A stretch of 64,000 nt of DNA from an uncultured Syntrophorhabdus sp. (GTDB taxonomy: Bacteria; Desulfobacterota; BSN033; UBA1163): NCBI GenBank assembly GCA_964477935.1, contig CAYZFX010000011.1, positions 3,277 through 67,276 on the forward strand, read 5' to 3'. Numbering within the stretch: the first letter of the stretch is position 1; each line of letters begins with the position of its first letter. The notes under the pieces were generated by a model. It had not been told where the DNA came from. It saw only the letters and a list, made by a program, of their open reading frames with translations, and searched no databases. The position numbers and the translations under genes were made by a program. Positions 12,465 through 27,457 of the stretch are shown here, piece by piece.

Positions 12465-13031
12465 ATGACCGCTGAAAAACCGGGTGGGTTCAATTTTTAT
12501 GACATGGTGAAAACCACCCCTTCCTCCTTAGGGGTCCGTGAGGTTATCGGGACCTTAGTCCGCAAGGTGAATCAGTTGATGAATGGGAAGGGATGTTCCC
12601 TCCATCTATTCGATCCCGAACGGAAGAGATGGGAATTGGTGGCTTCCCATGGATTAGGCGGTGATGATTTTGGAAAAGACCCTGTAGAGGCCGATCAGAG
12701 GATCGTAGAGACCTTGGTAGGGAACACGGTATGGGTCTCGGAGGCCACAAAATTTCCAGGCGTTCAATACGAAAAGGAGGCTGTGGGAGAAGGGAGATAT
12801 GGCGTCCTATCGGTTCCCCTTTCTGTTGAGGGACAGGTGGTGGGTATGCTGCGCCTCTATACCCCTGAGCCTCGAACTTTTTTGAAGGGAGAGATCGATT
12901 TTGCCGAGGCAATGGCTGAGATGGGAGCGAACATCCTCGAAAATATTAGAAGGTACGAAAGCCTTCGGAGAGATTATGAGTATGTGGTGAATGACATCTT
13001 CACCTTCTATGGATTCCGGCGGGGCATTTAG
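12465..13031 (+). CDS. Stand-alone GAF domain protein
   Basis: KGCSLHL, ASHGL, LSVPLSVEGQVVGMLRLY...F...EIDF GAF pattern; SD AAAGGAGG. Confidence 0.88.
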   Translation: MTAEKPGGFNFYDMVKTTPSSLGVREVIGTLVRKVNQLMNGKGCSLHLFDPERKRWELVASHGLGGDDFGKDPVEADQRIVETLVGNTVWVSEATKFPGVQYEKEAVGEGRYGVLSVPLSVEGQVVGMLRLYTPEPRTFLKGEIDFAEAMAEMGANILENIRRYESLRRDYEYVVNDIFTFYGFRRGI

Positions 13032-13049
13032 GTTGACCCGCAGCATTCA

Positions 13050-13670
13050 ATGGATCTAAAAAACGGGGAAGAGGAAGAGAGGGTGATTTCTACGAAGAGC
13101 CTATCGGTTGAGGTAAGATTCCACGGCAGGGGCGGACAGGGGGTAGTTACTGCCGCAAAACTTCTTGCCGAGGCCGCCATGAAAGAAGGAAAGTATTTTC
13201 AGGCCCTGCCGGATTATGGAGGGGAGAGGATGGGGGCCCCTGTCCGGGCCTATACCCGGATTAGCTCAACCCCGATCACCCTCCATTGTCAGGTCACCGA
13301 GCCAGAGATTGTGGTGGTCATCGACCCGACTCTGATCGAATTTATTGATGTGACAGAGGGCCTCCATCCGGAAGAGGGGATCCTCGTCGTCAATGCCCCT
13401 CTTTCTCCGGATGAGATTCGAAAGAAGACTTCTTTTAAGAAGGGAAAGGTGGCTACGGTAAACGCCACCCATATCGCTCTCCAATATCTGGGGAGAAATA
13501 TTCCGAATACCCCCATGTTGGGAGCCTTGGTCAAAGCGACCCCCATCGTTCGGGAGAAGACTCTTATCGATACGATCCAATATAAGTTGGAAGCCACGAT
13601 GTCCTCGAAGGTGGCAGAGGCGAATCGGGAGGCCTTCGAACGGGCCTTTCATGAGTGCCAGATAGGGTGA
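13050..13670 (+). CDS. porC: 2-oxoacid:ferredoxin oxidoreductase gamma subunit
   Basis: EVRFHGRGGQG, ERMGAPV and PNTPMLGA motifs. Confidence 0.93.
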   Translation: MDLKNGEEEERVISTKSLSVEVRFHGRGGQGVVTAAKLLAEAAMKEGKYFQALPDYGGERMGAPVRAYTRISSTPITLHCQVTEPEIVVVIDPTLIEFIDVTEGLHPEEGILVVNAPLSPDEIRKKTSFKKGKVATVNATHIALQYLGRNIPNTPMLGALVKATPIVREKTLIDTIQYKLEATMSSKVAEANREAFERAFHECQIG

Positions 13671-13684
13671 TCAAAGGAGGAACC

Positions 13685-13987
13685 ATGTCCCAACCGCTCA
13701 AGGGTTGGAGAGAGTTGCCCATGAGGGGCTTGATCGTCGAGCCCGGCAATTCCGTTGATTACGAGACAGGGAGCTGGAGGGCCCTTCGGCCTATCATCGG
13801 TTTAGAAAAATGCTCCCATTGTATGTTATGTTGGCTCTTTTGCCCGGATGCGAGCATCCGGGTAGAAAACTCCAAAGTGGTAGGCATAGACCTGAAGTAT
13901 TGTAAAGGGTGCGGCATCTGTCGGGAGGTATGTCGTCGCCAGGCGATCACAATGGTTGAAGAGACGAAGGGAAAGGAGGAGGTATAG
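13685..13987 (+). CDS. porD: 2-oxoacid:ferredoxin oxidoreductase delta subunit (2x[4Fe-4S])
   Basis: TGSWR..RP, CSHCMLCWLFCP and CKGCGICREVC motifs. Start set at ATG 13685 after AAGGAGG. Confidence 0.92.
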   Translation: MSQPLKGWRELPMRGLIVEPGNSVDYETGSWRALRPIIGLEKCSHCMLCWLFCPDASIRVENSKVVGIDLKYCKGCGICREVCRRQAITMVEETKGKEEV

Positions 13988-15187
13988 ATGGATCTCCTTC
14001 CGGTCAAAGGTAAACTCATGGCTCTTGAGGGGGATAATGCGATCGCTGAGGCCATGCGCCAGATCAATCCGGATGTGGTTGCCGCTTATCCCATCACCCC
14101 TCAAACCGAAATCGTCATGACCTTTAGCGAATTCGTCAGTCAGGGTTTGGTCGATACAGAACTTATTCCTGTTGAGAGCGAACATGCGGCCTTGAGCGCC
14201 TGTATCGGAGCCGCTCTGGCCGGGGCACGGACACAGACGGCGACCTGCGGTCCAGGATTGGCTCTGTTGTGGGAGATGCTCTGGGTCGCCTCGGGATGGC
14301 GTCTGCCCATTGTGATGCATATCACCAATCGGGCGTTTAACACTCCTTTAAACATCCTTTGCAGTCACGACGATTCCATGGGTTCCCGGGATGCCTGCTG
14401 GATTCAGCTCTACGCAGAAACCCAACAAGAGGCCTACGACAATGTGCTCCAGGCCGTTAGAATCGCCGAGCATCCCGAAGTTCTTCTGCCGGTGATGTGT
14501 TGTCTGGACGGGTTTGTCCTCAGCCATACCCTTGCGCCTGTTGAGGTTCTGCCCGATGAGATGGTGAAGAAATGGGTTGGCGAGTATTCGCCACGCTATT
14601 CCGTTCTGGATGTGGATCATCCGGTCACCTATGGGGCCGCTGATTTTACCGATTACTATTTTGAGCATAAGCGTCCCCAGTGGGAGGCAATGGCAAAGGC
14701 ATCGGGCGTTATTATGGAAATCGGCGAAGAATATGGCAAACTCACGGGCCGTCCATACCGTTCCATCGATACCTACCGACTGGAGGATGCGGAGGTGGCG
14801 ATCGTCATCTTGGGGGCAACAGCCGGCGCCGTCCGGGTGGCCGTCGACCGACTCCGGGCGAAAGGGATCAGGGCAGGAATGCTCAGGATTCGCTGCTTTC
14901 GCCCATTTCCAGCCGAGGCGGTGGCCGAAGCCCTCCAGGGCCTAAAGGCGGTCGCGGTACTGGAGCGAACCGGATTTTTTGGTGCCCAGGGAAACCCGGT
15001 CTTCACCGAAGTGGCAACGGCCCTATATCTCAAAGGGATCCGGATCCCACTGACCAATTACATTTTTGGCCTCGGGGGGAGGGATACGGTTCCCGAACAA
15101 ATCTGCACCGTCTATGAGGATCTGATCGACATGGCCCGGTCAGGCAAGACCGAGCCCGTCTTCCGTTATCTTGGGTTGAGAGAATGA
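13988..15187 (+). CDS. porA: 2-oxoacid:ferredoxin oxidoreductase alpha subunit
   Basis: YPITPQT, ESEHAA, NRA, DGFVLSH and GLGGRD motifs. Confidence 0.94.
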   Translation: MDLLPVKGKLMALEGDNAIAEAMRQINPDVVAAYPITPQTEIVMTFSEFVSQGLVDTELIPVESEHAALSACIGAALAGARTQTATCGPGLALLWEMLWVASGWRLPIVMHITNRAFNTPLNILCSHDDSMGSRDACWIQLYAETQQEAYDNVLQAVRIAEHPEVLLPVMCCLDGFVLSHTLAPVEVLPDEMVKKWVGEYSPRYSVLDVDHPVTYGAADFTDYYFEHKRPQWEAMAKASGVIMEIGEEYGKLTGRPYRSIDTYRLEDAEVAIVILGATAGAVRVAVDRLRAKGIRAGMLRIRCFRPFPAEAVAEALQGLKAVAVLERTGFFGAQGNPVFTEVATALYLKGIRIPLTNYIFGLGGRDTVPEQICTVYEDLIDMARSGKTEPVFRYLGLRE

Positions 15188-15203
15188 GAGAGGAAGGGGA
15201 ACC

Positions 15204-16274
15204 ATGGCTATCGAGGCAAAGGCAACCAAAATAAAGCTCAGAGAACTCTGTCATCAGGAAGAAAGATTGGCCCCCGGCCATCGAATGTGCTCTGGCTGCG
15301 CCGAAGCGGTCATCGTCCGTCAGGTCTTGCATGCGATCAACGATCCCGTGGTCGTGGCGACGCCGACCGGTTGTCTCGAAATCACCACGGGAATCTTTCC
15401 CTACACGGCCTGGCGAGTCCCCTGGATCCACAGCGCTTTTGAAAATGCCGCTTCGATCATCTCCGGTGTCGAAGCCGCCTATCGTTCTTTAAGGAGACGG
15501 GGCAAGATCGGTGACAGGACAATCAAATTTGTGGTCTTTGCCGGCGATGGCGCCACGTATGATATCGGATTCCAATGGTTGAGCGGCGCCCTGGAAAGGG
15601 GCCATCAATTTCTATATGTCTATATGAACACAGGAACCCAACGGAGCGGCGCCACCCCTAAAGGGGCCTGGAGCACAACCACTCCCGTGGGTAAGGCCGT
15701 CGCCGGGAAGTTGCAACACCGGAAGGATATGACCGCGATTGTTGCCGCTCATAATATTTCCTTTGTGGCTCAAGCCGCACCCCACGCCTGGCAAGACTTC
15801 ATGACGAAGGTGAAAAAGGCCATCTCCTCGGAAGGCCCTTCCTTCATTAATGTCATCAGCCCATGCCCCCGCGGCTGGCGCTATGATCCAAAGGACCTCA
15901 CCCTCCTGTCAAAGCTTGCCGTAGAAACCTGTGTCTGGCCCCTTTATGAAGTCGACCATGGGTCTTGGAAATTAAATTATAAACCGAAGGTAAAAAAACC
16001 GATCACGGAATGGTTCGCCGCTCAGGGAAGGTTCGCCCATTTGCTCTTGCCGGAATATAAGGAGCTGTCTGAGATGCTCCAACACCAGGTGGATCTGGAA
16101 TGGTCCAGGTTGGAGCTACGGTGTCGAGAAAGTTCCATCTCTCTCCCTCACCTCCAGATTCCATCTTCCACTGCTCTCGCCCAGAGGGCAAGTTTTAAGC
16201 CTCTCCCTGACTCCAGGGAAGATCTCGAGGAGAGAGAAGGGGTCCTTCCCTCCGGTATGGGCCTCCAAGGATGA
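15204..16274 (+). CDS. porB: 2-oxoacid:ferredoxin oxidoreductase beta subunit, possibly defective (TPP-motif deletion and C-terminal read-through)
   Basis: CSGC, TGC, GDG and SPCPRGW are present, but the sequence reads FLYV|YMNTG where the family has (C/M)YDNEAYMNTG. About 45 extra low-complexity residues follow ...RLELRC. Confidence 0.9.
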   Translation: MAIEAKATKIKLRELCHQEERLAPGHRMCSGCAEAVIVRQVLHAINDPVVVATPTGCLEITTGIFPYTAWRVPWIHSAFENAASIISGVEAAYRSLRRRGKIGDRTIKFVVFAGDGATYDIGFQWLSGALERGHQFLYVYMNTGTQRSGATPKGAWSTTTPVGKAVAGKLQHRKDMTAIVAAHNISFVAQAAPHAWQDFMTKVKKAISSEGPSFINVISPCPRGWRYDPKDLTLLSKLAVETCVWPLYEVDHGSWKLNYKPKVKKPITEWFAAQGRFAHLLLPEYKELSEMLQHQVDLEWSRLELRCRESSISLPHLQIPSSTALAQRASFKPLPDSREDLEEREGVLPSGMGLQG

Positions 16275-16706
16275 TCACCGAGGGTTCCCCTTTTTCAATT
16301 CGTCCCAGGGATAGTCGATCAGCTCGAGGAGCACCCCGTTCACCGTTTTAGGATGGATGAAGGCATATTTGCAGTCCCGGAAGGTTCTTGTTCCGCCGAC
16401 GAAATGGTAACCCTTGGCCTTCAGGTCCTCGATGGCCTTTTCCGTATTGTCGACATTGAGGCTGAGCACCATCATCCCTTCGCCCTTCTTTTCGATATAC
16501 TTCGCCACTTCCCCATCCGGTGTGGTCGATTCCATCAGTTCAAATCCTACCTCGCCCACCCAGTAGCGGGCCACCCGGATCTTCTCCGTCTCATCGACAT
16601 AGGAGTCATCCGGAGCGGACTTCCCGAGGATGGGCTCCCAGATCTTTCGGGCTGCCTCGAGGTCCCTGACGGCAATACAGATATGGTCGATCTTATTGAC
16701 TTTCAT
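16275..16706 (-). CDS. VOC (glyoxalase/methylmalonyl-CoA epimerase-like) protein
   Basis: IDHICIAV, ELME, GEG, FIHPK..NGVLLELI. Start set at ATG 16706. Confidence 0.88.
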   Translation of the reverse strand: MKVNKIDHICIAVRDLEAARKIWEPILGKSAPDDSYVDETEKIRVARYWVGEVGFELMESTTPDGEVAKYIEKKGEGMMVLSLNVDNTEKAIEDLKAKGYHFVGGTRTFRDCKYAFIHPKTVNGVLLELIDYPWDELKKGNPR

Positions 16707-16763
16707 GGAGGGTCTCATCCTTTCGTCTCGAAGATTTGATCCCCTTGGACCTTTCCTCTTTCA

Positions 16764-18026
16764 TCAAAAGCTGACTTTATATTTTCGGCTCAGATGGGCG
16801 AGCGATTCATCGATCGCATCGGCCACAAAGTCGAGATCCTGATCGGTGTGGCGATAGCAGATATACCCGTGATGATGGGGGGCAAAGAAGATGCCCCGCC
16901 GGATGAGCTGGGTGTAGATCTCCTCCCGCCTTGCCCGGTGGGTCTCCGCCTTGTCCCGCTTGAAGGTGATGAAGAACATCGGCGCGACCCCGCTCAATTC
17001 GGCCCCGACCTCGTACTTGTCGACAATAGCCTGTAATTTTTTCAGAAACCGCCCACCTCGCTCCCAGATCTGGGCGAGGACATTGTCCCGTTCGAGGATT
17101 TCGATCGTCTTGAGGGCGGCGATGAAGCCATCGCTGTTGGGAAAGAAGGTGGAGGAGATAAAGAGTTTCTGGGCTGCTGCCATCATCACCTCCGCCTTTC
17201 CGGTGACGACACTGATCGCATAGCCGTTGGCCATCCCTTTTCCGAGGACAGCCAGATCCGGGGTCACCCCATAGAGTTGCTGAGCCCCTCCGAGACGAAG
17301 CCTGAAACCCGTCCGGATCTCGTCGAAGATGAGGACCGCCCCATACTTCGTGGCCAGCGCCCTCACCCCTTCGAGGAAGCCGGGCTTCGGCTCCTCCATC
17401 TTCTGGTGGAGGGGATGGCCGAAGGGAGTCAGGATGATGGCCGCGGTCTGGTCACCGTGCTCTCTCATCAGGTCTTCGAGCTGATCGAGATCGTTATATC
17501 GGAACTCAAAGACGTCCTCATAAAACTTCGGAGGGATGCCGCCCTTCATTTCCACGCACCAGTCGTGCCACCCATGATAACCGCAGCGCATCACCTTGAT
17601 CCGATTGGTGTGGGCCCGGGCGATGCGGATGCTGGCAGTGGTGGCATCGGAGCCGGTCTTTAAAAAGATGGACATCTCGGAGCAGGGGACGATCTCGCTC
17701 AATTTCTTCGCAAGCTCGTTCTGATACGGCTGGGTGAGGGTAAAACAGAAGCCCTTCTCCCGGATCTGCCGGATGACCGCCTCGTCCACCTCTTCCTCGC
17801 GATAGCCCAGAATGATCGGTCCGTAACCGCAGAGGAAATCAATGTACTCGTTCCCGTCCACATCGATCAGACGACACCCCTTGCCGTACTCGAGGAAGAT
17901 GGGATATTCGCCTTCGATGAAGTCGCTCGGTTTCCGGGCTCCGAGGACACCGCCAGGGACGAATTTTTTGGCTTCCTCAAAGAGTTCCAGGCTTCGACGG
18001 ATATTCAACTTTTCAGCGGATTTCAT
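16764..18026 (-). CDS. Class III PLP aminotransferase (GSA-aminomutase-like fold, not HemL)
   Basis: DVDGNEYID, KTGSDAT, YHGW, FDEIRTGFR and PLP lysine in LGKGMANG. Start set at ATG 18026 after AAGGAG. Confidence 0.92.
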   Translation of the reverse strand: MKSAEKLNIRRSLELFEEAKKFVPGGVLGARKPSDFIEGEYPIFLEYGKGCRLIDVDGNEYIDFLCGYGPIILGYREEEVDEAVIRQIREKGFCFTLTQPYQNELAKKLSEIVPCSEMSIFLKTGSDATTASIRIARAHTNRIKVMRCGYHGWHDWCVEMKGGIPPKFYEDVFEFRYNDLDQLEDLMREHGDQTAAIILTPFGHPLHQKMEEPKPGFLEGVRALATKYGAVLIFDEIRTGFRLRLGGAQQLYGVTPDLAVLGKGMANGYAISVVTGKAEVMMAAAQKLFISSTFFPNSDGFIAALKTIEILERDNVLAQIWERGGRFLKKLQAIVDKYEVGAELSGVAPMFFITFKRDKAETHRARREEIYTQLIRRGIFFAPHHHGYICYRHTDQDLDFVADAIDESLAHLSRKYKVSF

Positions 18027-18074
18027 AAGGGATCTCCTTGGCATGGATGGCCTTTTTAAGGCCACCTACGCTCT

Positions 18075-19217
18075 CTAAAGGGAGAGGATCGAATGAACCT
18101 TTTCTGTCTGATGGATTTTGGCACCCCTCTGGATCAAGGCCCTAAGAAATTTTTTCGGATCGATGCAACCTTCTGGAGCGACCACTCCTTTGACCGTGAC
18201 ATCCCCAGCGTTCATCATCAGGGCTGCGATTGAGGCGGGAAGTCCTGTCCCCGGAGCCATCCTCCCGGCGATATCGGCGGTGAAGGTCACCTCTTTCCCT
18301 TCTCTCTCTCCCTTGACGATCACCTTCAGGCCCGAGGATTGAGGGCCCCGATCTCGATTGTTGGGGATGGAGTTCCAGAGCTGTAGGGTGAGATCGTAGG
18401 GAGCTACCTTCACCCCTTTGACCTCGATGGGCTCCTTGCTCAGAAAGCCGGTATCCCTCTGCTCCTTGATGAGCTCATCGACCCATGCCGGGATCAGGGC
18501 ACCCTTGATCACCACGTTCTTTACTCCTTTGATGTAACGGGGGATGGTCAGGGGTTGGGGATGGCCGACGTAGCGAACCTTGCAGACGCCGAGGGGGTCG
18601 AGGAACTCGGCCATCTCCTCTCCCGTACCTCCTTCTACATAGACCAGCCTGCCGTCCAGATACTGGGGAATCCTCCCGAGGGTCATGTGGAGGCTGTGAT
18701 CCCAGGCCGCGCCCGAGAGCTCGGCGATGCTCACGACCCAGAAGAGGGCAATGTCATCCACACGGTCGAGCTGATCGGCGAAATATTTAACGATGACGTT
18801 GTTTGTTCCCGGGTCGGAGCCCATCCCCGTAAGGACGGTGATCCCGGCGGCCCGGGCCGCCTGATCGATTTCGGAAGAGAAGAGGATTTCGGTCGCCTCG
18901 TAGTCATCGCAGATATCGATGTAGTTGACCCTCGCCTCCACAGCCGCACGAGCCACGGCGACCGCCGTCTTATAGAAAGGGCCTGCGCAGTTGATGACCA
19001 CATCGACCCCTTGGATGGCCTCGACCATGCCCTGAGGGTCATTCACATCGAGCCTTTTGAGCTCGACCTTCTCACTGGACCGGAGCTTCTCTTGGACCCG
19101 GGCAGGGTCGACATTGATGTCCCCTAAGATCACCTTCTTCAACCGATCCTGCTTGATGAGGTCCCGGGCGACTCCCTGACCCATTCCGCCCGTTCCTCCG
19201 ACGATCAATGCCTGCAT
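18075..19217 (-). CDS. Saccharopine dehydrogenase-family NAD(P)-dependent oxidoreductase (lysine 6-dehydrogenase/CANSDH-like fold)
   Basis: GGTGGMG Rossmann motif, VINCAGPF, YIDICDD, GMGSDPG and HPQPLTIP. Confidence 0.9.
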   Translation of the reverse strand: MQALIVGGTGGMGQGVARDLIKQDRLKKVILGDINVDPARVQEKLRSSEKVELKRLDVNDPQGMVEAIQGVDVVINCAGPFYKTAVAVARAAVEARVNYIDICDDYEATEILFSSEIDQAARAAGITVLTGMGSDPGTNNVIVKYFADQLDRVDDIALFWVVSIAELSGAAWDHSLHMTLGRIPQYLDGRLVYVEGGTGEEMAEFLDPLGVCKVRYVGHPQPLTIPRYIKGVKNVVIKGALIPAWVDELIKEQRDTGFLSKEPIEVKGVKVAPYDLTLQLWNSIPNNRDRGPQSSGLKVIVKGEREGKEVTFTADIAGRMAPGTGLPASIAALMMNAGDVTVKGVVAPEGCIDPKKFLRALIQRGAKIHQTEKVHSILSL

Positions 19218-19265
19218 GCTTGATCTCCTCCTCGCTTTAGGTAGGGGTAAAGGATCTTTCTGTAT

Positions 19266-21554
19266 TCATTTGGTTCCATTCCCCTTCTTTTTCTCTTCGA
19301 TGGCTTTCAGAATCTTATCCGGCGTGATGGGAAACTCATGGAAGAAATAACCGACTGCATTCGAGATGGCCCCGCAGTATGCCTGAGCCGCGCTCATCGC
19401 CACGGACATCCCTGCCTCTTTGGCGCCGTAAGGCCCGTTGGGATCGATCGTCTCGACGATGATATCATTGATCTTCGGCATATCGATGGCGAGGGGGACC
19501 AGATAGCCGAGCTGGGTTGGGTTCAAGACCCTTCCTTCATGCCACTGGAGGAATTCCGTAAGCATTCCGCCCTGTCCTCCCATAGCCACCCCGCCTTCGA
19601 ACTGCCCCTCGATGACCTTCGGATTGAGGGCGTAGCCGACATCCTGGGAGGCGGTCACCTCCAGGACCTCCACCTGGCCCGTTTCGGGATCGACCTTGAC
19701 CTCGCAGATAACCGTGCCGAAGGAGAAGGTCTCCGAAAGCTGACCATAAGGGTTCTTGACCCACTCCCGCTTCCAATCCACTTTGGGCCAGTAAGAACCG
19801 GATCCGCTGATCGACTCATTCCGAGAGAGGGCCATCCGCACCGCCTTGTCAATACTGATTGACTGGTCAGGATTTTTGGTGACGAAGATCTTCCGGTTTC
19901 TTACGCTCAGTTCCTCCTCGGAGACGCCGAGCTCTTCGGCGACGATCCTGTAGAGTTTCTTCTTCACGTCCAGAGCGGCGAGGCGAACGGCATTTCCTCC
20001 GATGAACGTCTCGCACATTGAATAGGATCCCGGGTCGCTCGGGGTAACCTCTGTATCGGCGTTGATGAGCTGGATGTCATCCGGCGTAAGGCCCAGTTCT
20101 TCGGCCACGATCTGAACCACCATATGATCATTGCCCTGGCCGTTGTCCACGATTCCGGTGATCACGGTGGCCCCGCCGTCCTCGTTCAGTTTGATGAAGG
20201 CTTGGGAGCCTCCCCGGATGCCCATGGGAAAACCGGTCTGGACAGAGTTACACCCGATGCCGATGCCATGGTAAGGGGGTAATTTCCCGAACTTCTCGGA
20301 CCAACGGGCCTTCTCTGCCGAACGGAGGATCGTTTCCGTAAGACCACAGCTGGCTACATAGGAGCGGGTCGGCGTCATGTCCCCGGTCTGCCGGGCATTC
20401 CTCAGACGCATGGTCACGGGATCGATGCCCAGTTCTTCGCCGAGCCTATCGAGCTGGAGATCGACCCCGCAGGCGAAGGCCCTTCCATGGGTTCGGAACA
20501 TTCCTCGGATCGGTTTATTCGTGAGCACCCGGTAGCCATTGTAGCGGACGTTCTCCATACGGTAGGCCTGCTCCATGCAGAGAAAGGGGACCGACGTCGC
20601 GATGGGTCCGGTTGAACTGTAAGCCCCACCGTCCATGTAGCAGGTGATGTCCCGGGCGATCACTCTCCCTTCCCGGTCCACACCGGTCTTGATCCGGGTG
20701 ATCATCGAGTGGGCCTGTCGCGTGCAGACCGTATTCTCCTCGCGTGTATAGACAATCTTGACAGGTCTCTGGGATTTCTTCGCCAGCAAGGCGCAGATCA
20801 CGTCGGCGGGAGAGATTTCGGAGCGGCCTCCAAAGGCCCCTCCGATCGTAATCTTGCGGACCCTCACCTTATTGAGAGGCATTTTGAGGACGTTGGAAAG
20901 GGGTTTGGCCTTCAGATGGGGTCCTGCATTGGGCATCCAGATCTCGAGGTTTCCCGCATGGTCGAACTGGGCCACGACCGCATAGGGTTCTCCCTGGAAA
21001 TAGGAGTCCTCAGGGGCCGTGAAGGTATCCTCTCGGACAAGATAGGAGCTGGCAAAGCCTTTTTCGACATCGCCCACATTGATGTGGACGTGAATGTTGA
21101 TGTTGTTGGGGTAGATCTCGTGGAGCTGGGGCGCACCGGGCGCAAGGGCCTCCTCGATCGTGAAGACTGCGGGGAGCACCTCGTAGGTGACCTCGATGAG
21201 CGAGAGCGCCTCGAGGGCCGTATCTTCATCGATGGCCGCTACCGCAGCCACCTCTTCACCGACATAGCGGACCTTATCCGTCGGAAGGAACTGTTGATCC
21301 TGTGTATATTTAAACACCCCCCACTTCTCTCCGGTCGTGTCCTTGGCGGTGACGACCGCTTTGACCCCGGGGAGCTTTTCTGCCCTCGAGGTGTCGATCG
21401 ATATGATCCGTGCATGGGCGTGGGGGGACCTCAGGATCTTTCCCACCAGCATCCTCGGAAGGGAGAGGTCGGCCGTAAAGCGGGCCTCCCCTGTCGCCTT
21501 CGAGATGGTATCGATCCGCTTCATATCCTTGCCGATGTAAGAAAATTTTTCCAT
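19266..21554 (-). CDS. Xanthine-oxidase-family molybdopterin-binding subunit, HcrA-like, with a non-canonical active site
   Basis: ILRSPHAHARI, DKVRY.G..VAAVAA, GGAFGGRSE, DNGQG, ALNP..IEGQ and DPNGPYGAKE. Start set at ATG 21554 after GGAGG. Confidence 0.93.
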   Translation of the reverse strand: MEKFSYIGKDMKRIDTISKATGEARFTADLSLPRMLVGKILRSPHAHARIISIDTSRAEKLPGVKAVVTAKDTTGEKWGVFKYTQDQQFLPTDKVRYVGEEVAAVAAIDEDTALEALSLIEVTYEVLPAVFTIEEALAPGAPQLHEIYPNNINIHVHINVGDVEKGFASSYLVREDTFTAPEDSYFQGEPYAVVAQFDHAGNLEIWMPNAGPHLKAKPLSNVLKMPLNKVRVRKITIGGAFGGRSEISPADVICALLAKKSQRPVKIVYTREENTVCTRQAHSMITRIKTGVDREGRVIARDITCYMDGGAYSSTGPIATSVPFLCMEQAYRMENVRYNGYRVLTNKPIRGMFRTHGRAFACGVDLQLDRLGEELGIDPVTMRLRNARQTGDMTPTRSYVASCGLTETILRSAEKARWSEKFGKLPPYHGIGIGCNSVQTGFPMGIRGGSQAFIKLNEDGGATVITGIVDNGQGNDHMVVQIVAEELGLTPDDIQLINADTEVTPSDPGSYSMCETFIGGNAVRLAALDVKKKLYRIVAEELGVSEEELSVRNRKIFVTKNPDQSISIDKAVRMALSRNESISGSGSYWPKVDWKREWVKNPYGQLSETFSFGTVICEVKVDPETGQVEVLEVTASQDVGYALNPKVIEGQFEGGVAMGGQGGMLTEFLQWHEGRVLNPTQLGYLVPLAIDMPKINDIIVETIDPNGPYGAKEAGMSVAMSAAQAYCGAISNAVGYFFHEFPITPDKILKAIEEKKKGNGTK

Positions 21555-21652
21555 AACCTGCCTCCCCATGCCGAGCGGTTTCAGCCTACCCGATGGGCAC
21601 TAAACTTTTTCTCCCGTCCGCCTCTCTCTCCCTACACCTTTCGTGATGGATC

Positions 21653-22135
21653 TTACGAGACCGTCTCTCCGGCGAGAGACCGGATGGCCTCTACAATTTT
21701 GGCATAGCCGGTACATCGGCAGATGTTTCCGGAGATGGCCTGTCGGATCTCACGTTCGGTCGGGTTTGGGTTCTCTCTCAGAAGGGCGTAGGCGGTGAGG
21801 ATCATGCCGGGACTGCAAAAGCCGCACTGGATGGCATGGTGTTGGATGAAAGCCTCCTGAACAGGGTGGAGGCGATCTCCTTTCCTGAGCCCTTCGATCG
21901 TCGTAATCTCCATTTCCTGGACCGTGGCCGCGAGGGTGAGGCAGGACCTCACGGGGATTCCGTCAATGAGGACGGTACAGGACCCGCAGACTCCTTCCCC
22001 GCAACCCTCCTTCGTCCCTGTGAGATGGAGATCGTTTCGAAGGACGTCGAGGAGCGTCCGGTTGGGAGAGACGAGGAGGTCAAAGACTTCTCGATTGACC
22101 TTCAGGCGAATGGCTCTCTTCTTCATCTCCACCAT
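21653..22135 (-). CDS. 2x[2Fe-2S] subunit of the XO-family molybdoenzyme (HcrC/CoxS-like)
   Basis: GTKEGCGEGVCGSC, QCGFCSPG and NICRCTGY motifs. Confidence 0.96.
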   Translation of the reverse strand: MVEMKKRAIRLKVNREVFDLLVSPNRTLLDVLRNDLHLTGTKEGCGEGVCGSCTVLIDGIPVRSCLTLAATVQEMEITTIEGLRKGDRLHPVQEAFIQHHAIQCGFCSPGMILTAYALLRENPNPTEREIRQAISGNICRCTGYAKIVEAIRSLAGETVS

Positions 22136-22136
22136 G

Positions 22137-23111
22137 TCACGGTCTCCCTTCCATCCTTTCCATGGCCGCTTTCACGGCCCGTTTGGCCAGCACCCCTGCC
22201 ATCTTTCTCCTGTAGGGGCCCGGCATCTGGAGATTATCGATCGCTTCCGCGAGTTCGGAGGCCTTCTGGCCCAGGCTCTCCAGATCGATCTCTCCGGAGA
22301 GGTCATCGATGGGTCTTGGCCCCGCTCCAAAGGCCCCGAGGACGACCCGGCATCGTTCGATCCCTTCCTCCTCCAGGGTTGACACAAAGGCCGCTGCTGA
22401 GGCGATGGGGTAGTCGATGCTTCCCCGAAGGCGGAGTTTCTGGTAGGACGAACCGGACCTGCCTTCTGGATGGGGGAGGATGATCTTCGTGAGCAATTCA
22501 TCAGGTTCGAGGTTGAATGGGGTGATGCCATTGCCAGTAAAAAGGTCCTGCACGGGAATCGTTCGGTTCGAATCCTTCTTTTCGAGAAGACATCGGGCCT
22601 TGAAGGCGAAGAGGACGGGGGCCAAATCGCCCTGATAGACACTGAAACAACGTCTGCTTCCTTTGACTGCGAGGCAGGCATCTCCACCTCTTTTGTGGCA
22701 CCGTTCGAGCCCATCGAGAACCAATCGGGATTGGTTGTAATAGAGGCATCGGGTATTCTGGAGCAGGTTCCCGCCTATGGTCGCCATGTTGAGGATTGTG
22801 GGAGAAGCCACCTGATGGGCCGCTTCGGTGAGGGCTTGAAATTTCCGGGCGAGGAGAGGCGATCGGGCGATCGCTCTCAATCTGGTGTTGGCCCCGATGA
22901 TCGTCTCGCGCTCCCTCACTTCAATGCCTTCCAGCTCCTTAATCTTTCCAAGGCAGACCACGACTTCAGGCTCCATGAGCCCCAACCTCATCCGGTTCAA
23001 AAGGTCTGTTCCCCCTGCCATCACCTTGGCGGTCTCTTTCCGAGCGTGGAGAAGGGCGAGGATCTCTTCGAGGGTCTTGGGCTCAAGGAGTTGAAACGGT
23101 GGAAGTCTCAT
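22137..23111 (-). CDS. FAD-binding subunit with HcrB-type [4Fe-4S] insertion
   Basis: AGGTDL, ATIGGNL, and the RCLYYNQS...CHKRGGDAC...RC..YQGDLAP four-Cys insert. Start set at ATG 23111 (SD AGGAG) because a promoter overlaps the upstream ATG. Confidence 0.93.
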   Translation of the reverse strand: MRLPPFQLLEPKTLEEILALLHARKETAKVMAGGTDLLNRMRLGLMEPEVVVCLGKIKELEGIEVRERETIIGANTRLRAIARSPLLARKFQALTEAAHQVASPTILNMATIGGNLLQNTRCLYYNQSRLVLDGLERCHKRGGDACLAVKGSRRCFSVYQGDLAPVLFAFKARCLLEKKDSNRTIPVQDLFTGNGITPFNLEPDELLTKIILPHPEGRSGSSYQKLRLRGSIDYPIASAAAFVSTLEEEGIERCRVVLGAFGAGPRPIDDLSGEIDLESLGQKASELAEAIDNLQMPGPYRRKMAGVLAKRAVKAAMERMEGRP

Positions 23112-23144
23112 CGGTGTCTCCTGGGCGTGGGGCGGTTTCCTCAT

Positions 23145-23265: not shown

Positions 23266-23300
23266 TGTATACTGTATACAAAATAACCCCTCTTTGTCAA
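23266..23300 (-). promoter_or_regulatory. Upstream promoter P2 overlapped by the perfect palindromic operator TGTATAC-T-GTATACA
   Basis: TTGACA at 23300-23295; the palindrome at 23266-23280 covers the -10 region (TACAGT at N18). Confidence 0.65.
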
Positions 23301-23422: not shown

Positions 23423-24916
23423 TTAGACTTCAATGATGTTGAACTGTTCCTGATGAAAACCGGGTTTGGCCCTGATGACGATCTTCTTCTTCAATCTCTT
23501 CTCGAGCTCCTCCACTCCGGCCCGTTCTTCCTCGTAAAGGAGATCCACCACATCGGGATTTGCCTCGACCACGATGCTGTGTCCCCCCAGCTCGGAGGCC
23601 GTCCTCTCGATTTCACGGAAGATTTCGTAACAGACCGTCACCTTCGATTTGACATAGCCCGATCCCTCGCAATAGGGGCAAGCCTCTCCGAGCACCCTCA
23701 GGATGCTTTCGCGCGTCCGTTTGCGGGTCATCTCCACCAGCCCCAGTTCCGATATCTTGAAGATGGTGGTTTTCTGGCGGTCCTTCTTGATCGCCTCCTC
23801 AAGGGCTTGATACACCTTCTCCTTATCGCCCTCCCGCTCCATATCGATGAAGTCGATGATGATGATCCCTCCGATGTTACGAATCCTCAATTGATAGGCG
23901 ATCTCCTTGGCGGCCTCAAGGTTCGTCTTCAGGATGGTGTCGGCGAGGTTCCTCTTGCCGACGTAACGGCCTGTATTGACGTCGATGGAGACCATGGCTT
24001 CCGTTTGGTCGATGACGATGTAACCTCCAGACTTCAGCCAGACCTTCCTTTCGAGGATCTTATCGATCTCCACCTCGATGCCGTAGGCATCGAAGATCGG
24101 TTTCTCCTCTCCGTAGAGAAGGACCTCACATCTCTGTTTGGGCATATAGGTGTTGAGGAAGGAGAGGATGTTCTCGTATTCCTCTCTGGAGTCGATGACG
24201 ATCCGGCTGATCTGGGGTGAGAGGAGGTCCCGAATCATCCTCAGGATCAGGGTCAGGTCGCTGTGAATGAGGGTAGGGGCGGAGCTCACCTCCTTCTTCT
24301 TCTGGATGTTGTTCCACACCTTGAGGAGAAATTCGATATCGTTTCGAATCTCCTCTGGCTCGGCACCTTCACTGGCGGTGCGAACGATGATCCCGCCGGA
24401 GGCGGGTTTGATCGATTGAGCAATCTCTCGCAATCGTCTCCGTTCCTTTTCATCCCGGATTCTTCTCGACACACCGATGTGATCGACGGTCGGCATATAG
24501 ACGAGATACCGTCCGGGCAGCGTGATGTGGGAAGTAATTCGGGTCCCTTTGGTCCCGATGGGCTCTTTGGAGACCTGGACCAGGATCTCCTGACCCTCAA
24601 AGAGGAGGTCCTGAATCTGGGTCGAGGGAGGGTTGAGGGAATTGGCCATTTCGATTCCCAGAAAGGCCAGCTCATCATACTCATCCATACCGCTGTAGAC
24701 GTCGGAGACATAGAGGAAAGCAGCTCTTTCGAGACCGATGTCGACAAAGGCGGCCTGCATCCCCGGCAGGACTTTGACGACCTTCCCCTTATAAATATTT
24801 CCGATAATCCCCCGATCCCGGTTCCGTTCGATGTGGAGTTCGGCAAGGACCCGATCTTCAAGAAGGGCCACCCTGGTCTCCTGAGGCGTCACATTAATGA
24901 TGAGTTCATTGGCCAT
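23423..24916 (-). CDS. rng: Ribonuclease G (Rne/Rng family)
   Basis: GNIYKGKV..VLPGMQAAFVDIG, LVQVSKEPIGTKG, IDVNTG and GGIIIIDFIDM motifs. Confidence 0.96.
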   Translation of the reverse strand: MANELIINVTPQETRVALLEDRVLAELHIERNRDRGIIGNIYKGKVVKVLPGMQAAFVDIGLERAAFLYVSDVYSGMDEYDELAFLGIEMANSLNPPSTQIQDLLFEGQEILVQVSKEPIGTKGTRITSHITLPGRYLVYMPTVDHIGVSRRIRDEKERRRLREIAQSIKPASGGIIVRTASEGAEPEEIRNDIEFLLKVWNNIQKKKEVSSAPTLIHSDLTLILRMIRDLLSPQISRIVIDSREEYENILSFLNTYMPKQRCEVLLYGEEKPIFDAYGIEVEIDKILERKVWLKSGGYIVIDQTEAMVSIDVNTGRYVGKRNLADTILKTNLEAAKEIAYQLRIRNIGGIIIIDFIDMEREGDKEKVYQALEEAIKKDRQKTTIFKISELGLVEMTRKRTRESILRVLGEACPYCEGSGYVKSKVTVCYEIFREIERTASELGGHSIVVEANPDVVDLLYEEERAGVEELEKRLKKKIVIRAKPGFHQEQFNIIEV

Positions 24917-24979
24917 TGAGGAACTCCCTGAATCGGCCTCCCATTGTCCGGTTTCGGTCCAGAAAGAGGACGGTTCCTT

Positions 24980-27457
24980 TCATTCCAGTTTCACGATCCG
25001 GCATCGGGCGAGGTCTTCTCCCTTCAACCCCAGCAGGGCCTCGAGGGCCTCCATGGGCTTGACCGTCTTTCCTCCCAGGCTCATGAGCACAAGTTCGATC
25101 ACTGTGGCCTTCTCCGGGTCCTCCCCTGAGGCAGGCTCCATCACCTCGACCCTCTCGATCAAGGGGAGCAGGTCGATCTTCCTTCTCTTCTCCTTTCTTT
25201 CCTGGAGAATGAAGAGCTCCCGGTTCTTCAGGCTCCGGTTCAATGTCGATCGGGCCTCTTCGGCCGTAAGGAGACGATCGAGCGTAATCTGATAGACGGA
25301 TCGATAATCCTGGGAGGGAGAGGAGATCGGGAAGAGGATCTCCTTGGCCTCGGTGATTTCGATCCCTGGGGGTAGGTGCTGATTGAGTTTTGCCATCAAC
25401 TCCCCTGCCCCGATCCTTCCCTCCAGCTCGATGTCCACCCACTCTCTCAAGCTCTCCACGCCCACCGGTAGGGCCCTCTCGAAGATGATCCTTGGCATCG
25501 GATGGAACCCATCGGAGTGGCGAAGAGGGAGGTCAGCCCGTTTGGCAGCCCGGTAAAAAAGGGTCGCCAGTTCCAGATGGCTGACAAATCGAATCTCTCC
25601 CTTTTTTACAAAGGCCAGCCGGAATTTTGTCCTGAGTCTCTTCCTTCGAACTTCCCTCCATCCTTCCTTCCGAGGGGATTGGAGTTGAAGAGGAGGGGCT
25701 TCCCTCAACATGATCTCCTTCCCGTCGCAAAGGCCACAGCGGTGGCAATCGCTTCCCGGACAGGAAGCGCTGACCTCTTCCTTCAAGGCCTTCTGATACT
25801 CCTCCCAGAGGAATTCGGTCCGGATCCCCGTATCGATGAAGGACCAAGGAAGGGGTTCCTCCCGCTCCTTCTTTCGGGTATAGGCGGCCATGTCGAGCCC
25901 CGCCTTCTCAAAGGCTTTTTCCCAGAGATCATAATGGAACTGATCGCTCCAGCCATCGAACCGACACCCAAGCCGGTGGGCTGCGACCAGCACGCTGGAA
26001 AGGTTTCGGTCACCCAAAGCGAAGACCCCTTCGAGGAGGCTGAGCCGTGGGTCTTGCCATTTGAGACGGAGATGTTTCTTCTTCAGGTTCTCCTTTAAAT
26101 AGCGGAGTTTCTCTTTAATCTCCGGAAGGGGAAGGGGCGATTCCCACTGAAAAGGCGTATGGGGTTTGGGCACGAAGGTGGAGACGCTGACGCTGATCTG
26201 GGGGTGGCTTTTCATTCGTTCGCCCTGGGCAGAGATCCTCAGGGATAGATCGAGGATGGCGCGCACATCCTCTTCCCTCTCCGTGGGGAGGCCGATCATA
26301 AAGTAGAGTTTGAGATTTTTCCAGCCCAGGGAGAAGAGGTCCCGGACGCCCTGAAAGAGGAGGTCTTCCTCTAACTCTTTATTGATCACCTTCCGGAGCC
26401 GCTCAGTGGCCGCCTCAGGAGCGATGGTGAAGCCTGTCTTACGAACCCGCTTGATTTCACCGGCGAGACGGCCGACCAGGCTTTCGATTCTCAGGGAAGG
26501 GAGTGACACCGCCACCCGTTTCGACTCGAACCGGTCCATCAGACTCGTAAGGAGTGGGGCGATGGAGGAGTAATCTCCTGCGCTGAGCGATAGGAGGGAG
26601 ATCTCCTCATAGCCTGTCTGTTTCAACCCGGCCTCAAGGATCTTTCGAATCTCGTTCGGATCCCTTTCCCGGTAAGGTCGATAGATAAATCCTGCCTCAC
26701 AGAAGCGGCATCCCCGTTTGCACCCCCGGGCGATCTCCATGCTGAAGCGGTCATGAACCACTCGCATGTAGGGGACGACGGGACAGGTGGGGAAGGGGGC
26801 GAGGTTGAGATCGGCAACGATCCGTTTCTGAACCTTTTGTCCCCTGAAGAGGCTTGGCACATAAACGCCCTTCACCTTCGAGAGGGCCCCCAGGAGGTCA
26901 TCCTTTTTCCCCCGGACCTCTTTCCACGAGAGGACGAGATCGCAGATCTCGAGACTGACCTCTTCCCCGTCACCGATCACCACGGCATCGAGGAAGTCGG
27001 CCACAGGTTCCGGATTGAAGGCGTTGGGCCCTCCGGCAATGACGAGGGGAAACCGTTCGTCCCGATCCTTCGCATAAAGGGGTATGCCCGAAAGGTCGAG
27101 CATGTTGAGGAGATTGGTGAAGCAGAGTTCGTATTGGAGGGAGAAACCGAGGATATCGAATTGAGAAAGGGGGGTGGAGGACTCCAGAGAGGTTAAAGGG
27201 ATCTCCTTCTCTCTCAGAATCTGCTCCATATCGCCCCAGGGAGCAAAGACCCTTTCGCAGGCGATCTCTCTTCTTGCGTTTAAGAGGTGATAGAGAATCT
27301 GAAGGCCAAGGTGGGACATACCCACTTCATAGACATCGGGAAAGGCGAGGCAGAACGTCAATTTCACTTCGGAAGGATCTTTTTCGATGGCATTGATCTC
27401 CCGGCCGAGATATCTGACCGGCTTTGAGACGAGAGGGAGGTAGGTTTTCACAGACAT
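24980..27457 (-). CDS. TIGR03960 B12-binding radical SAM protein fused to TIGR03936 (DUF2344) domain
   Basis: FPDVYEVGMSHLG, RGCKRGCRFC, FVPKPHTPFQW and C-terminal RFVSHL...GFHPMPR. Start set at ATG 27457. Confidence 0.93.
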   Translation of the reverse strand: MSVKTYLPLVSKPVRYLGREINAIEKDPSEVKLTFCLAFPDVYEVGMSHLGLQILYHLLNARREIACERVFAPWGDMEQILREKEIPLTSLESSTPLSQFDILGFSLQYELCFTNLLNMLDLSGIPLYAKDRDERFPLVIAGGPNAFNPEPVADFLDAVVIGDGEEVSLEICDLVLSWKEVRGKKDDLLGALSKVKGVYVPSLFRGQKVQKRIVADLNLAPFPTCPVVPYMRVVHDRFSMEIARGCKRGCRFCEAGFIYRPYRERDPNEIRKILEAGLKQTGYEEISLLSLSAGDYSSIAPLLTSLMDRFESKRVAVSLPSLRIESLVGRLAGEIKRVRKTGFTIAPEAATERLRKVINKELEEDLLFQGVRDLFSLGWKNLKLYFMIGLPTEREEDVRAILDLSLRISAQGERMKSHPQISVSVSTFVPKPHTPFQWESPLPLPEIKEKLRYLKENLKKKHLRLKWQDPRLSLLEGVFALGDRNLSSVLVAAHRLGCRFDGWSDQFHYDLWEKAFEKAGLDMAAYTRKKEREEPLPWSFIDTGIRTEFLWEEYQKALKEEVSASCPGSDCHRCGLCDGKEIMLREAPPLQLQSPRKEGWREVRRKRLRTKFRLAFVKKGEIRFVSHLELATLFYRAAKRADLPLRHSDGFHPMPRIIFERALPVGVESLREWVDIELEGRIGAGELMAKLNQHLPPGIEITEAKEILFPISSPSQDYRSVYQITLDRLLTAEEARSTLNRSLKNRELFILQERKEKRRKIDLLPLIERVEVMEPASGEDPEKATVIELVLMSLGGKTVKPMEALEALLGLKGEDLARCRIVKLE

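Follow-up and report, generated by a model that had tools for sequence, protein, structure and literature searches.

Which pathway is served by the six genes at positions 16275-23111 of a 64-kb stretch of DNA from an uncultured Syntrophorhabdus sp. (contig CAYZFX010000011.1; this whole stretch of 64,000 nucleotides is called the window below)? The genes encode the FAD, [2Fe-2S] and molybdenum (Mo) subunits of an enzyme resembling 4-hydroxybenzoyl-CoA reductase (Hcr), a saccharopine dehydrogenase-like (SDH-like) protein, a class III aminotransferase, and a VOC protein. A first-pass annotation, made from the sequence alone, suggested either lysine/pipecolate or cyclic-amine catabolism via amino-semialdehydes, or catabolism of aminoaromatic or N-heteroaromatic compounds with reductive removal of a ring substituent. 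Comparison with related loci indicates that the operon is probably a nitrogen-handling part of the anaerobic indoleacetate (iaa) pathway, and not part of a lysine pathway.

All six open reading frames (ORFs) of the co-oriented, closely spaced set were found on the minus strand, with the Pfam domains claimed for them (Table 1). From the FAD gene to the VOC gene, the intergenic gaps are 0, 83, 48, 9, and 45 nt. The single promoter region assumed at first agrees with the sequence: a sigma-70-like promoter lies upstream, and no terminator-like site was found within the operon on the minus strand. Reading of the upstream sequence revealed no sigma-54 promoter motif. The upstream gene on the same strand encodes RNase G, is 278 nt off, and is separated from the operon by a spacer that holds both promoter-like sites. 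For the FAD gene, the ATG at 23111, preceded by AGGAGA at 23122-23117, is the most likely start, because the second -10 box abuts the first ATG of the listed ORF; 23111 is also the end coordinate given in the first-pass annotation. For the aminotransferase, the ATG at 18026 (residue 14 of the listed ORF) is the probable start, since its homologues begin at that residue.

The set is conserved. In a one-genome-per-species scan, relatives of the SDH-like protein were seen in 351 species, and 80 loci anchored on the SDH-like gene were retrieved. A reverse scan yielded 80 metagenome loci anchored on the Mo subunit. ORFs of the related loci were called by a simple in-house caller, and all ORFs of about 170 loci were clustered; where single loci are named, they carry numbers with the prefix L. 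The 80 retrieved SDH-anchored loci are all from Desulfobacterota, including Syntrophales, Syntrophorhabdaceae, Desulfomonilaceae, Desulfatiglandaceae, and Desulfobacteraceae. Syntrophales, Syntrophorhabdaceae, Desulfatiglandaceae, and Desulfomonilaceae are mostly anaerobic degraders of aromatic compounds.

The aminotransferase gene lies directly 3' of the SDH-like gene in 72 of the 74 SDH-anchored loci with room for it. Of the 80 SDH-anchored loci, 52 have Hcr-like genes (26/38 among those flanked on either side by 8 kb or more), and these genes occur in at least four orders and orientations relative to the SDH-like/aminotransferase pair. A VOC gene is seen in 33 of the 80. Conversely, 28 of the 41 Mo-anchored metagenome loci with room contain both the SDH-like and the aminotransferase gene, and the remaining ones mostly consist of FAD-FeS-Mo-VOC alone. 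Where the Mo subunit is at least 77% identical to that of the window, all loci with room carry the pair, except L113 (83%; FAD-FeS-Mo-VOC only). A lack of co-conservation had been named in the first-pass annotation as what would speak against the cluster, and these counts show the opposite. The SDH-like protein and the aminotransferase are 70-89% identical to those of the window, versus 33-65% for the FAD subunit.

The pair is also found far from this group. The SDH-like protein and the aminotransferase are, respectively, 59% and 76% identical to those of the window in L086 (a VOC-SDH-aminotransferase unit), 55% and 68% in L087 (by genes for an acyl-AMP ligase, an acyl carrier protein (ACP), a ketosynthase, and a phosphopantetheinyl transferase), and 43% and 54% in L084 (inside a Dethiobacteria cluster with Kdd, Kal, and Kce). 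The SDH-like protein and the aminotransferase co-evolve, also outside the group of the window. In L087, the pair sits between the acyl-AMP ligase and a 358-residue protein, with the ACP, ketosynthase, and phosphopantetheinyl transferase nearby, an arrangement suggesting that the pair acts in biosynthesis here, on a beta-keto thioester. In the Dethiobacteria loci L084 and L085, the order is Kdd, SDH-like, Kal, Kce, and Kat-like aminotransferase; an ammonia lyase and a transaminase for 3-aminobutyryl-CoA are both present there, and there is no KamA or KamDE nearby. More distant SDH-like relatives occur in Bacillota, one Candidatus lineage, and Freyarchaeota, and their gene contexts are uninformative.

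The recurrent neighbours of the related loci point to the pathway. Among about 170 loci, they are a family III CoA-transferase (33 loci, by Pfam and NCBIfam), an acyl-CoA dehydrogenase (33 loci), EtfB and EtfA (25 and 22), a GntR/FCD regulator (20), the TrpB-like enzyme TrpB2 (19, above the NCBIfam cut-off), a TRAP transporter (13-16), IorA and IorB (12 and 9), the B12-binding small subunit of a mutase (12, above the NCBIfam cut-off), a PaaK-like CoA ligase (9), and a caprolactamase/IaaCE-like HyuAB (3-4). The large subunit of the mutase scores 582 bits on MM_CoA_mutase, and both this subunit and MeaB are above NCBIfam cut-offs. In 29 of 37 acyl-CoA dehydrogenases, GGG replaces the catalytic YEG. 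This replacement is a hallmark of IaaF, the decarboxylating benzylmalonyl-CoA dehydrogenase (PMC8360864). The other iaa roles are those of IaaB (ligase), IaaL (phenylsuccinyl-CoA transferase), and IaaGH (mutase) (PMC8360864), while IaaCE is the lactamase (PMC8453981). In gene content, these neighbours correspond to the anaerobic indoleacetate pathway of Aromatoleum.

Two layouts illustrate the arrangement. In the first, genes for PaaK, the mutase large and small subunits, GntR, the acyl-CoA dehydrogenase, and the CoA-transferase are divergent from FAD-FeS-Mo-SDH-aminotransferase-VOC-DctPQM. In the second, GntR is followed by CoA-transferase-acyl-CoA dehydrogenase-EtfB-EtfA-FAD-FeS-Mo-SDH-aminotransferase-VOC. 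TrpB2 and IorAB are directly 3' of relatives of the operon in several lineages. The first-pass annotation had allowed that close homologues might map to an already characterised pathway. This is partly so: they are embedded in predicted iaa operons (PMC8360864) and share an operator with them.

The candidate operator is a tandem hexamer. GTATAC-T-GTATAC upstream of the operon is the sole copy in the window (0.01 expected). Of 173 related loci, 52 contain GTATAC-N-GTATAC, with 63 sites in all, where about 0.3 would be expected. Thirty of these sites are upstream of the Hcr-like FAD gene, 16 of them in the divergent spacer shared with the CoA-transferase gene. Nine are upstream of SDH or VOC-SDH units standing apart from Hcr-like genes, including that of L086. 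The remaining sites are located at genes for the mutase small subunit and the TRAP transporter. Because the same motif precedes iaa-type units, SDH units, and the operon of the window alike, there is sequence evidence that these units and the IaaF/IaaL/IaaGH-like genes form one regulon. Its regulator is probably the GntR/FCD protein of the cluster.

The Mo enzyme shares the architecture of HcrABC. The Pfam domains of the three ORFs match the Mo/FAD/[2Fe-2S] arrangement of its three subunits (FAD_binding_5 in the FAD subunit, E 1.9e-40; Fer2_2, E 2e-36, plus Fer2 in the [2Fe-2S] subunit, where both Cys motifs are readable in the translation). The top NCBIfam match is HcrA (TIGR03194) for the Mo subunit, with 643 bits against a cut-off of 995 (471 bits for XdhA), and HcrB for the FAD subunit, with 217 bits against 405. 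The [2Fe-2S] subunit scores 175 bits on the HcrC model, the cut-off of which is 258. All three subunits are thus under the equivalog cut-offs (TIGR03194, TIGR03195, and TIGR03193). The top PDB chain for the Mo subunit is 1rm6_A (465 bits). The FAD subunit aligns with Thauera HcrB (1rm6_B) through the insertion, and all four Cys residues of the [4Fe-4S] cluster are kept, in agreement with the [4Fe-4S] cluster assigned to this subunit earlier. The four-Cys loop is retained in all FAD subunits of the clade of the window, in every subfamily. In Hcr, this extra [4Fe-4S] loop lets ferredoxin electrons pass towards Mo. To our knowledge, the loop has so far been seen only in this reductive enzyme.

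A neighbour-joining tree of 55 alpha subunits was built from one alignment, in which the HcrA sequence was transcribed from the PDB-match alignment. The Mo subunit of the window belongs to a monophyletic clade, the members of which are at least 52% identical to it, and HcrA is outside. The clade includes every alpha subunit adjoining the SDH-like/aminotransferase pair, apart from extra xanthine dehydrogenase (XDH)-type copies. The Mo subunit of the window is about 37% identical to Thauera HcrA, and clade members are 34-38% identical to HcrA. The identity classes among the related subunits (52%, 65-71%, and 77-91%) could be considered as several independently recruited Hcr-like paralogues, but the tree shows one clade. 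The term Hcr-like therefore holds for the architecture and the four-Cys loop, with a narrower meaning than in the first-pass annotation: by sequence, the enzyme belongs to a clade of its own and is not an HcrA orthologue.

Nine loci (L017, L037, L100, L116, L118, L166, L168, L169, and L070) have an additional FAD-FeS-Mo trio, of the ordinary XDH type, next to the Hcr-like one, and in L036 such a trio sits at the far end of the locus. This extra trio does not have the four-Cys loop, and its Mo subunit is 33-37% identical to that of the window. In about nine loci, the loop-less trio adjoins the PaaK-like CoA ligase, and it could be a candidate for a separate hydroxylase. Other neighbours of the Hcr-like genes are a MoxR-like AAA ATPase and a CoxE-like VWA protein, which follow them in L140, L141, L151, and L153, and MoeA-like and YqeB-like proteins (identified by eye), which follow them in L066 and L070. 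These are probably maturation factors of the Mo centre.

The SDH-like protein is the most conserved protein of the cluster, with orthologues 70-84% identical across orders. It contains PF03435 (Sacchrp_dh_NADP; 59.2 bits, cut-off 25.1) and PF16653 (Sacchrp_dh_C; 41.7 bits, cut-off 31), and carries an NAD(P) Rossmann motif. Its AlphaFold model has a pLDDT of 96.9. The best Foldseek match is carboxyspermidine dehydrogenase (TM 0.80-0.83), followed by L-lysine dehydrogenase 3ABI (TM 0.74) and saccharopine reductase, and lower by BioU and native amine dehydrogenases. Imines are intermediates in the C-N bond oxidations or reductions catalysed by enzymes with the fold of carboxyspermidine dehydrogenase, lysine dehydrogenase, and saccharopine reductase. 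The identity to all structural matches is at most 21%, and the sequence E-values to PDB chains are 1e-7 to 1e-8. On the NCBIfam model of carboxynorspermidine synthase, the protein scores 32 bits against a cut-off of 800. By model score and identity, it is not within the characterised specificity groups CANSDH, LysDH, and saccharopine reductase. A role as a beta-ketoacyl-thioester reductase was also considered, given weak KR/SDR Pfam matches and contexts with ACP/ketosynthase and Hbd/thiolase genes, and was dropped as the leading idea because the structural neighbours are all C-N oxidoreductases.

The best PDB matches of the aminotransferase are glutamate-1-semialdehyde (GSA) aminomutases, and the lysine of its LGKG motif, which binds pyridoxal phosphate, aligns with theirs. 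It is not a HemL equivalog (275 bits, cut-off 486, for PRK06209; 255 bits, cut-off 527, for TIGR00713). It is 54% identical to the aminotransferase of L084, the neighbours of which (Kdd, Kal, and Kce) are above NCBIfam cut-offs, and 57% identical to a Zhaonella aminotransferase near KamA/AtoDA. Kat of 'Candidatus Cloacamonas acidaminovorans', a HemL-like protein, is a 3-aminobutyryl-CoA:2-oxoglutarate aminotransferase (EC 2.6.1.111; Perret et al. 2011, PMC3149608). A 60% identical orphan homologue of Kat was seen in the sulfate reducer NaphS2, without lysine-fermentation genes (PMC3149608). The lysine-fermentation genes kamA, kamDE, kdd, and kce are likewise found neither in the window nor in the Desulfobacterota loci. 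Based on homology and the genomic context of its relatives, the aminotransferase is best filed in the Kat family, and it is probably a beta-transaminase acting on acyl-CoA. The earlier assignment to a class III aminotransferase for omega- or beta-amines is thereby refined from a generic enzyme to this HemL-like family.

The VOC protein is a fold relative of methylmalonyl-CoA epimerase and not an equivalog (TIGR03081; 86.8 bits, cut-off 114.95). In 81 of 173 loci, a VOC gene adjoins the Hcr-like genes, the SDH-aminotransferase pair, or both. There are two subtypes. One is 42-50% identical to the VOC protein of the window and is encoded between the Mo and SDH genes. The other, the type of the window, is 70-84% identical and is encoded after the aminotransferase gene. 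Both subtypes are seen in one operon in L128.

We tentatively propose, with rather less than even confidence, that this six-gene operon belongs to an iaa-type regulon of strictly anaerobic Desulfobacterota, and that all of its enzymes act on CoA thioesters. The pathway served would be indoleacetate- or tryptophan-derived catabolism to 2-aminobenzoyl-CoA. The Hcr-like enzyme, with reduced ferredoxin, would take the ring amino group off 2-aminobenzoyl-CoA or a close amino-aroyl-CoA, giving benzoyl-CoA and ammonia. The deamination might proceed by a Birch-like mechanism, analogous to the dehydroxylation of 4-hydroxybenzoyl-CoA. The VOC protein may epimerise a 2-substituted malonyl-CoA such as (2-aminobenzyl)malonyl-CoA for an enantiospecific IaaF-type dehydrogenase. 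IaaF acts enantiospecifically, and benzylmalonyl-CoA is epimerised by a methylmalonyl-CoA epimerase, which provides the other enantiomer (PMC8360864). The SDH-like/aminotransferase pair could use an NAD(P)-linked redox step at the C-N bond to turn a beta-amino acyl-CoA into a beta-oxo acyl-CoA. A candidate substrate would be the amino analogue of a lower intermediate of the benzoyl-CoA pathway, either ring-reduced or ring-opened. Alternatively, the SDH-like enzyme might regenerate the amino acceptor of the aminotransferase.

Four considerations favour a reductive deaminase. The four-Cys loop is known only from reductive Hcr. A deaminating module could work on its own, the situation in the window, as well as joined to iaa genes. 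The separate loop-less XDH-type enzyme, a possible hydroxylase, is present in about nine loci. Finally, the abundance of Hcr-like proteins in Desulfatiglans anilini is higher on aniline or 4-aminobenzoate than on phenol or benzoate, by a factor of at least about 100 (PMC7500099), and Hcr-like enzymes have been suggested for the reductive deamination of an aminobenzoyl-CoA in this species (Xie et al. 2020, PMC7500099). The aminoaromatic or N-heteroaromatic alternative of the first-pass annotation, with reductive removal of a ring substituent, agrees in direction with the iaa-type neighbours and the Hcr-like enzyme. It can be further speculated, with considerable doubt, that the Hcr-like clade is a reductive deaminase of aminobenzoyl-CoA, a xanthine oxidase-family enzyme taking off an aromatic amino group, that makes up, with the pair and the VOC protein, an undescribed ATP-saving nitrogen-removal branch in strict anaerobes, the pair performing a new beta-aminoacyl-CoA reaction on a ring-derived intermediate.

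Several facts weigh against this proposal. The functions of all six proteins are drawn from homology and context. No IaaF, IaaL, or mutase gene is near the operon in the window; only EtfA and EtfB are seen, at the far right end. This minus-strand pair runs off the right end; the truncated EtfB is 68% identical to EtfB of IaaF-type loci, and on this ground iaa-type genes may lie just past the end of the window, about 40 kb from the operon. The pair is without any Hcr-like gene in 12 of the 38 fully flanked loci, and it also occurs in unrelated contexts (lysine fermentation and the ACP/ketosynthase cluster). It has no role in the known iaa pathway, because that pathway has no sp3 beta-amino acyl-CoA intermediate. 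The Hcr-like proteins of D. anilini are likened to the clade of the window by description only. Besides, many iaa-type loci have no Mo enzyme within 8-10 kb other than the Hcr-like one. The single Mo enzyme of the Aromatoleum iaa cluster is assigned to hydroxylation of the indole ring.

The last two points lead to the strongest competing explanation, which is possible though on the whole unlikely: by analogy with the single-Mo-enzyme composition of the Aromatoleum cluster, the Hcr-like enzyme could be a hydroxylase that acts on C2 of indoleacetyl-CoA (or on a related heteroaryl-acyl-CoA) and would correspond, in strict anaerobes, to the Aromatoleum Mo-dehydrogenase. Electrons would then flow outward via FAD and the extra [4Fe-4S] cluster to ferredoxin, and the SDH-like protein, the aminotransferase, and the VOC protein would act later. 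It is the sole Mo enzyme within 8-10 kb of IaaL/IaaF/mutase-like genes in compact iaa-type loci, for example L014, L047, L131/132, and L146-L156. Indole or tryptophan could be turned into indoleacetyl-CoA by TrpB2 and IorAB, the genes of which follow directly downstream in several lineages. The kinship to Hcr suits a CoA-thioester substrate, and the published iaa pathway now begins with indoleacetyl-CoA (PMC8360864). However, the four-Cys loop has to date been seen only in reductive Hcr, and the loop-less XDH-type enzyme beside the PaaK-like ligase is a more conventional candidate for the hydroxylation. The operon of the window and its closest relatives (89-91% Mo identity) are without other iaa genes nearby. 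The ATP-dependent lactamase, which is required after hydroxylation, is seen in just 3-4 loci.

It is improbable that the SDH-like/aminotransferase pair, with or without VOC, is an independent module for CoA esters of beta-amino acids (e.g., of the 3-aminobutyryl-CoA type) that is merely co-regulated or co-located with the Hcr-like genes and shares no intermediate with them. The 12 fully flanked loci without Hcr-like genes fit such a module, as do the distant pairs elsewhere: that of L086, by housekeeping genes, that of L084, by Kdd-Kal-Kce, and that of L087, by acyl-AMP ligase/ACP/ketosynthase genes. Against it, the operator also precedes SDH or VOC-SDH units apart from Hcr-like genes, the Hcr-like genes stay near the pair through at least four gene orders or orientations, and a Mo subunit at least 77% identical to that of the window predicts the pair in every locus with room except L113.

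Less probable again is a plain 4-hydroxybenzoyl-CoA reductase for the catabolism of phenol, 4-hydroxybenzoate, or tyrosine. HcrABC is the best family and structure match, the four-Cys loop is present, and the host lineages are mostly anaerobic aromatics degraders. Nevertheless, all three equivalog cut-offs are missed by far, the Mo subunit falls in a separate clade at 37% identity to HcrA, and the conserved neighbours are amine-handling and iaa-type genes, not genes for phenol or hydroxybenzoate. The Hcr-like proteins of D. anilini are not induced on phenol (PMC7500099).

The first alternative of the first-pass annotation, in which the SDH-like protein makes an amino-semialdehyde from lysine, pipecolate, or a cyclic amine, the Mo enzyme oxidises the aldehyde, the aminotransferase yields a 2-oxoacid, and the adjacent oxidoreductase converts it to a CoA ester, is very improbable: the SDH-like fold does match lysine dehydrogenase and saccharopine reductase, one distant pair is in a lysine-fermentation cluster, and a 2-oxoacid:ferredoxin oxidoreductase is convergent with the operon in the window, but the Mo enzyme is in the CoA-thioester-acting Hcr branch with a reductive-type loop and not among aldehyde oxidoreductases, the aminotransferase is of the acyl-CoA-acting Kat type rather than one for 2-aminoadipate or lysine, the conserved neighbours encode arylsuccinyl/benzylmalonyl-CoA-type enzymes, and the adjacency of the oxidoreductase is not conserved.

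That oxidoreductase had been suggested to take the keto-acid product. Of the 80 SDH-anchored loci, L027 alone contains homologues of it, at a distance of about 6 kb from the SDH gene; IorAB is found in other loci instead. In the window, its four subunits are encoded in the order gamma, delta, alpha, and beta, and the last gene stops exactly at the end of the VOC gene, with zero spacer.

The enzyme families of the operon are all known, and the clusters around close homologues have already been predicted as iaa operons by others. What appears to be undescribed in the literature searched is the Hcr-like clade, its linkage to the SDH-like/Kat-like pair and VOC, and the common operator. The first-pass annotation did not recognise the combination as a described pathway, and no paper describing it was found in full-text literature searches. 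The predicted iaa regulon of strict anaerobes gains three enzymes and a candidate operator. We know of no enzyme assigned to the reductive deamination of 2- or 4-aminobenzoyl-CoA. Measurements of this activity in anaerobes go back to the early 1990s (cited in PMC7500099), and the distinct, widespread Hcr-like clade is a concrete candidate for it. If the proposal of a reductive deaminase is true, a nitrogen-removal branch would attach to the catabolism of indole, tryptophan, indoleacetate, and aminobenzoate. The operon type also gives a genomic context for the orphan Kat-like aminotransferase of NaphS2 noted in 2011. Among the sources of the matching metagenome-assembled genomes are bog, lake, groundwater, and sediment samples. 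Given this range of carriers and habitats, the pathway bears on the anoxic mineralisation of tryptophan, indole, auxin, and anilines.

The other features of the window are listed at the end of Table 1. None of the other genes of the window, including those for the oxidoreductase and the tannase/TRAP/CoA-ligase/GntR set, proved to be a conserved neighbour in the related loci. The genes near the left end, which lack the GTATAC operator, seem to serve the uptake and activation of aromatic esters. A tannase gene is also near the SDH-aminotransferase pair in L081. A kinase/sigma-54 regulator pair like that preceding the oxidoreductase genes follows the aminotransferase gene in L125. RNase G and the fused radical-SAM protein, directly upstream of the operon, are housekeeping in appearance and are not conserved neighbours of it. 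The deoxyhypusine synthase-like gene stands alone among chaperone and protease genes (ClpB-like AAA, DnaJ, and LonC-like).

Table 1. Features of the operon and of its surroundings, in positions of the 64-kb window. Promoters are predictions.
Feature	Position	Strand	Basis or remark
FAD/[4Fe-4S] subunit (beta) of the Hcr-like molybdoenzyme	22137-23144 (listed ORF); likelier 22137-23111	minus	Pfam FAD_binding_5, CO_deh_flav_C
[2Fe-2S] subunit (gamma)	21653-22135	minus	Pfam Fer2, Fer2_2
Mo/molybdopterin subunit (alpha), Hcr-like	19266-21569	minus	Pfam Ald_Xan_dh_C, MoCoBD_1, MoCoBD_2
SDH-like putative NAD(P)-dependent C-N oxidoreductase	18075-19217	minus	Pfam Sacchrp_dh_NADP, Sacchrp_dh_C
Class III aminotransferase, HemL-like, best filed in Kat family	16764-18065; probable start 18026	minus	Pfam Aminotran_3
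Single-domain VOC protein	16275-16718	minus	Pfam Glyoxalase, Glyoxalase_4
Sigma-70-like promoter TTGACA-18-TACAGT	23271-23300	minus	Consensus scan, 10/12 matches
Second promoter-like site TTGACA-17-TATAAA	23145-23173	minus	Read directly in the sequence
Operator-like tandem hexamer GTATAC-T-GTATAC	23267-23279		Overlaps the -10 box of the upstream promoter (TTGACA-18-TACAGT)
Tannase/feruloyl-esterase family protein, TRAP transporter (DctPQM), acyl-CoA ligase, GntR/FCD regulator	503-7888		
Histidine kinase, sigma-54 response regulator, GAF protein, then 2-oxoacid:ferredoxin oxidoreductase	9615-16274	plus	
Four-subunit 2-oxoacid:ferredoxin oxidoreductase	13050-16274	plus	Convergent on the VOC gene
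RNase G and 838-residue fused radical-SAM protein	23423-27496	minus	Radical-SAM protein: TIGR03960 plus TIGR03936
Deoxyhypusine synthase-like gene	32613-33662		Homospermidine/deoxyhypusine synthase family
EtfA and truncated EtfB	62360-63993	minus	

Among known systems, the Hcr-like clusters of D. anilini are close in description. They encode a beta subunit of 332 residues and are co-induced with a phenylacetate-CoA ligase and TRAP binding proteins (PMC7500099). Unlike the window, the D. anilini cluster, which ends at a scaffold edge, is described without mention of an SDH-like or aminotransferase gene (PMC7500099). The supplementary proteome table of that study contains no saccharopine-dehydrogenase entry, and its sole GSA-aminomutase is constitutive (PMC7500099).

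Carboxy(nor)spermidine dehydrogenase, L-lysine dehydrogenase, and saccharopine reductase share the PF03435/PF16653 two-domain fold with the SDH-like protein. The SDH-like gene has no partners for polyamine or lysine biosynthesis beside it. Kat is a HemL-like class III enzyme, as is the aminotransferase of the window, and the kinship is suggested via homologues in lysine-fermentation clusters. Unlike Kat, the gene of the window is without lysine-fermentation neighbours; its partner is the SDH-like gene, and it shows linkage to Hcr-like and iaa-type genes.

HcrABC of Thauera aromatica (PDB 1RM6/1SB3) has three subunits (Mo, FAD, and [2Fe-2S]) with the identical domain order, and is the best sequence match of the alpha and beta subunits of the window. 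Its FAD subunit, like that of the window, has an insertion of about 40 residues with four Cys residues for the extra [4Fe-4S] cluster. The differences are the alpha-subunit identity of about 37%, the scores of all subunits well under the equivalog cut-offs, and the separate clade. The clade of the window is also linked, unlike HcrABC, to the SDH-like gene, the Kat-like aminotransferase, VOC, and iaa-type genes.

The iaa operon of Aromatoleum aromaticum and A. evansii is likened to the related loci by inventory. Common to both are the GGG-type acyl-CoA dehydrogenase, the family III CoA-transferase, the split B12 mutase with MeaB, the PaaK-like ligase, a Mo enzyme of the xanthine oxidase family, and, rarely in the related loci, the IaaCE-like HyuAB. 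Unlike in the Aromatoleum operon, the lactamase is mostly absent in the related loci, and the window shows the six-gene module only. SDH-like proteins, Kat-like aminotransferases, and VOC proteins were not found described as iaa components. The related loci have a GntR/FCD regulator with GTATAC-N-GTATAC, whereas Aromatoleum has IaaQ and IaaR. Predicted iaa operons of strict anaerobes, reported for D. anilini, other sulfate reducers, NaphS2, and Ferroglobus (Schuhle et al., PMC8360864), have an electron-transfer flavoprotein of their own, and in this dedicated flavoprotein the related loci resemble them.

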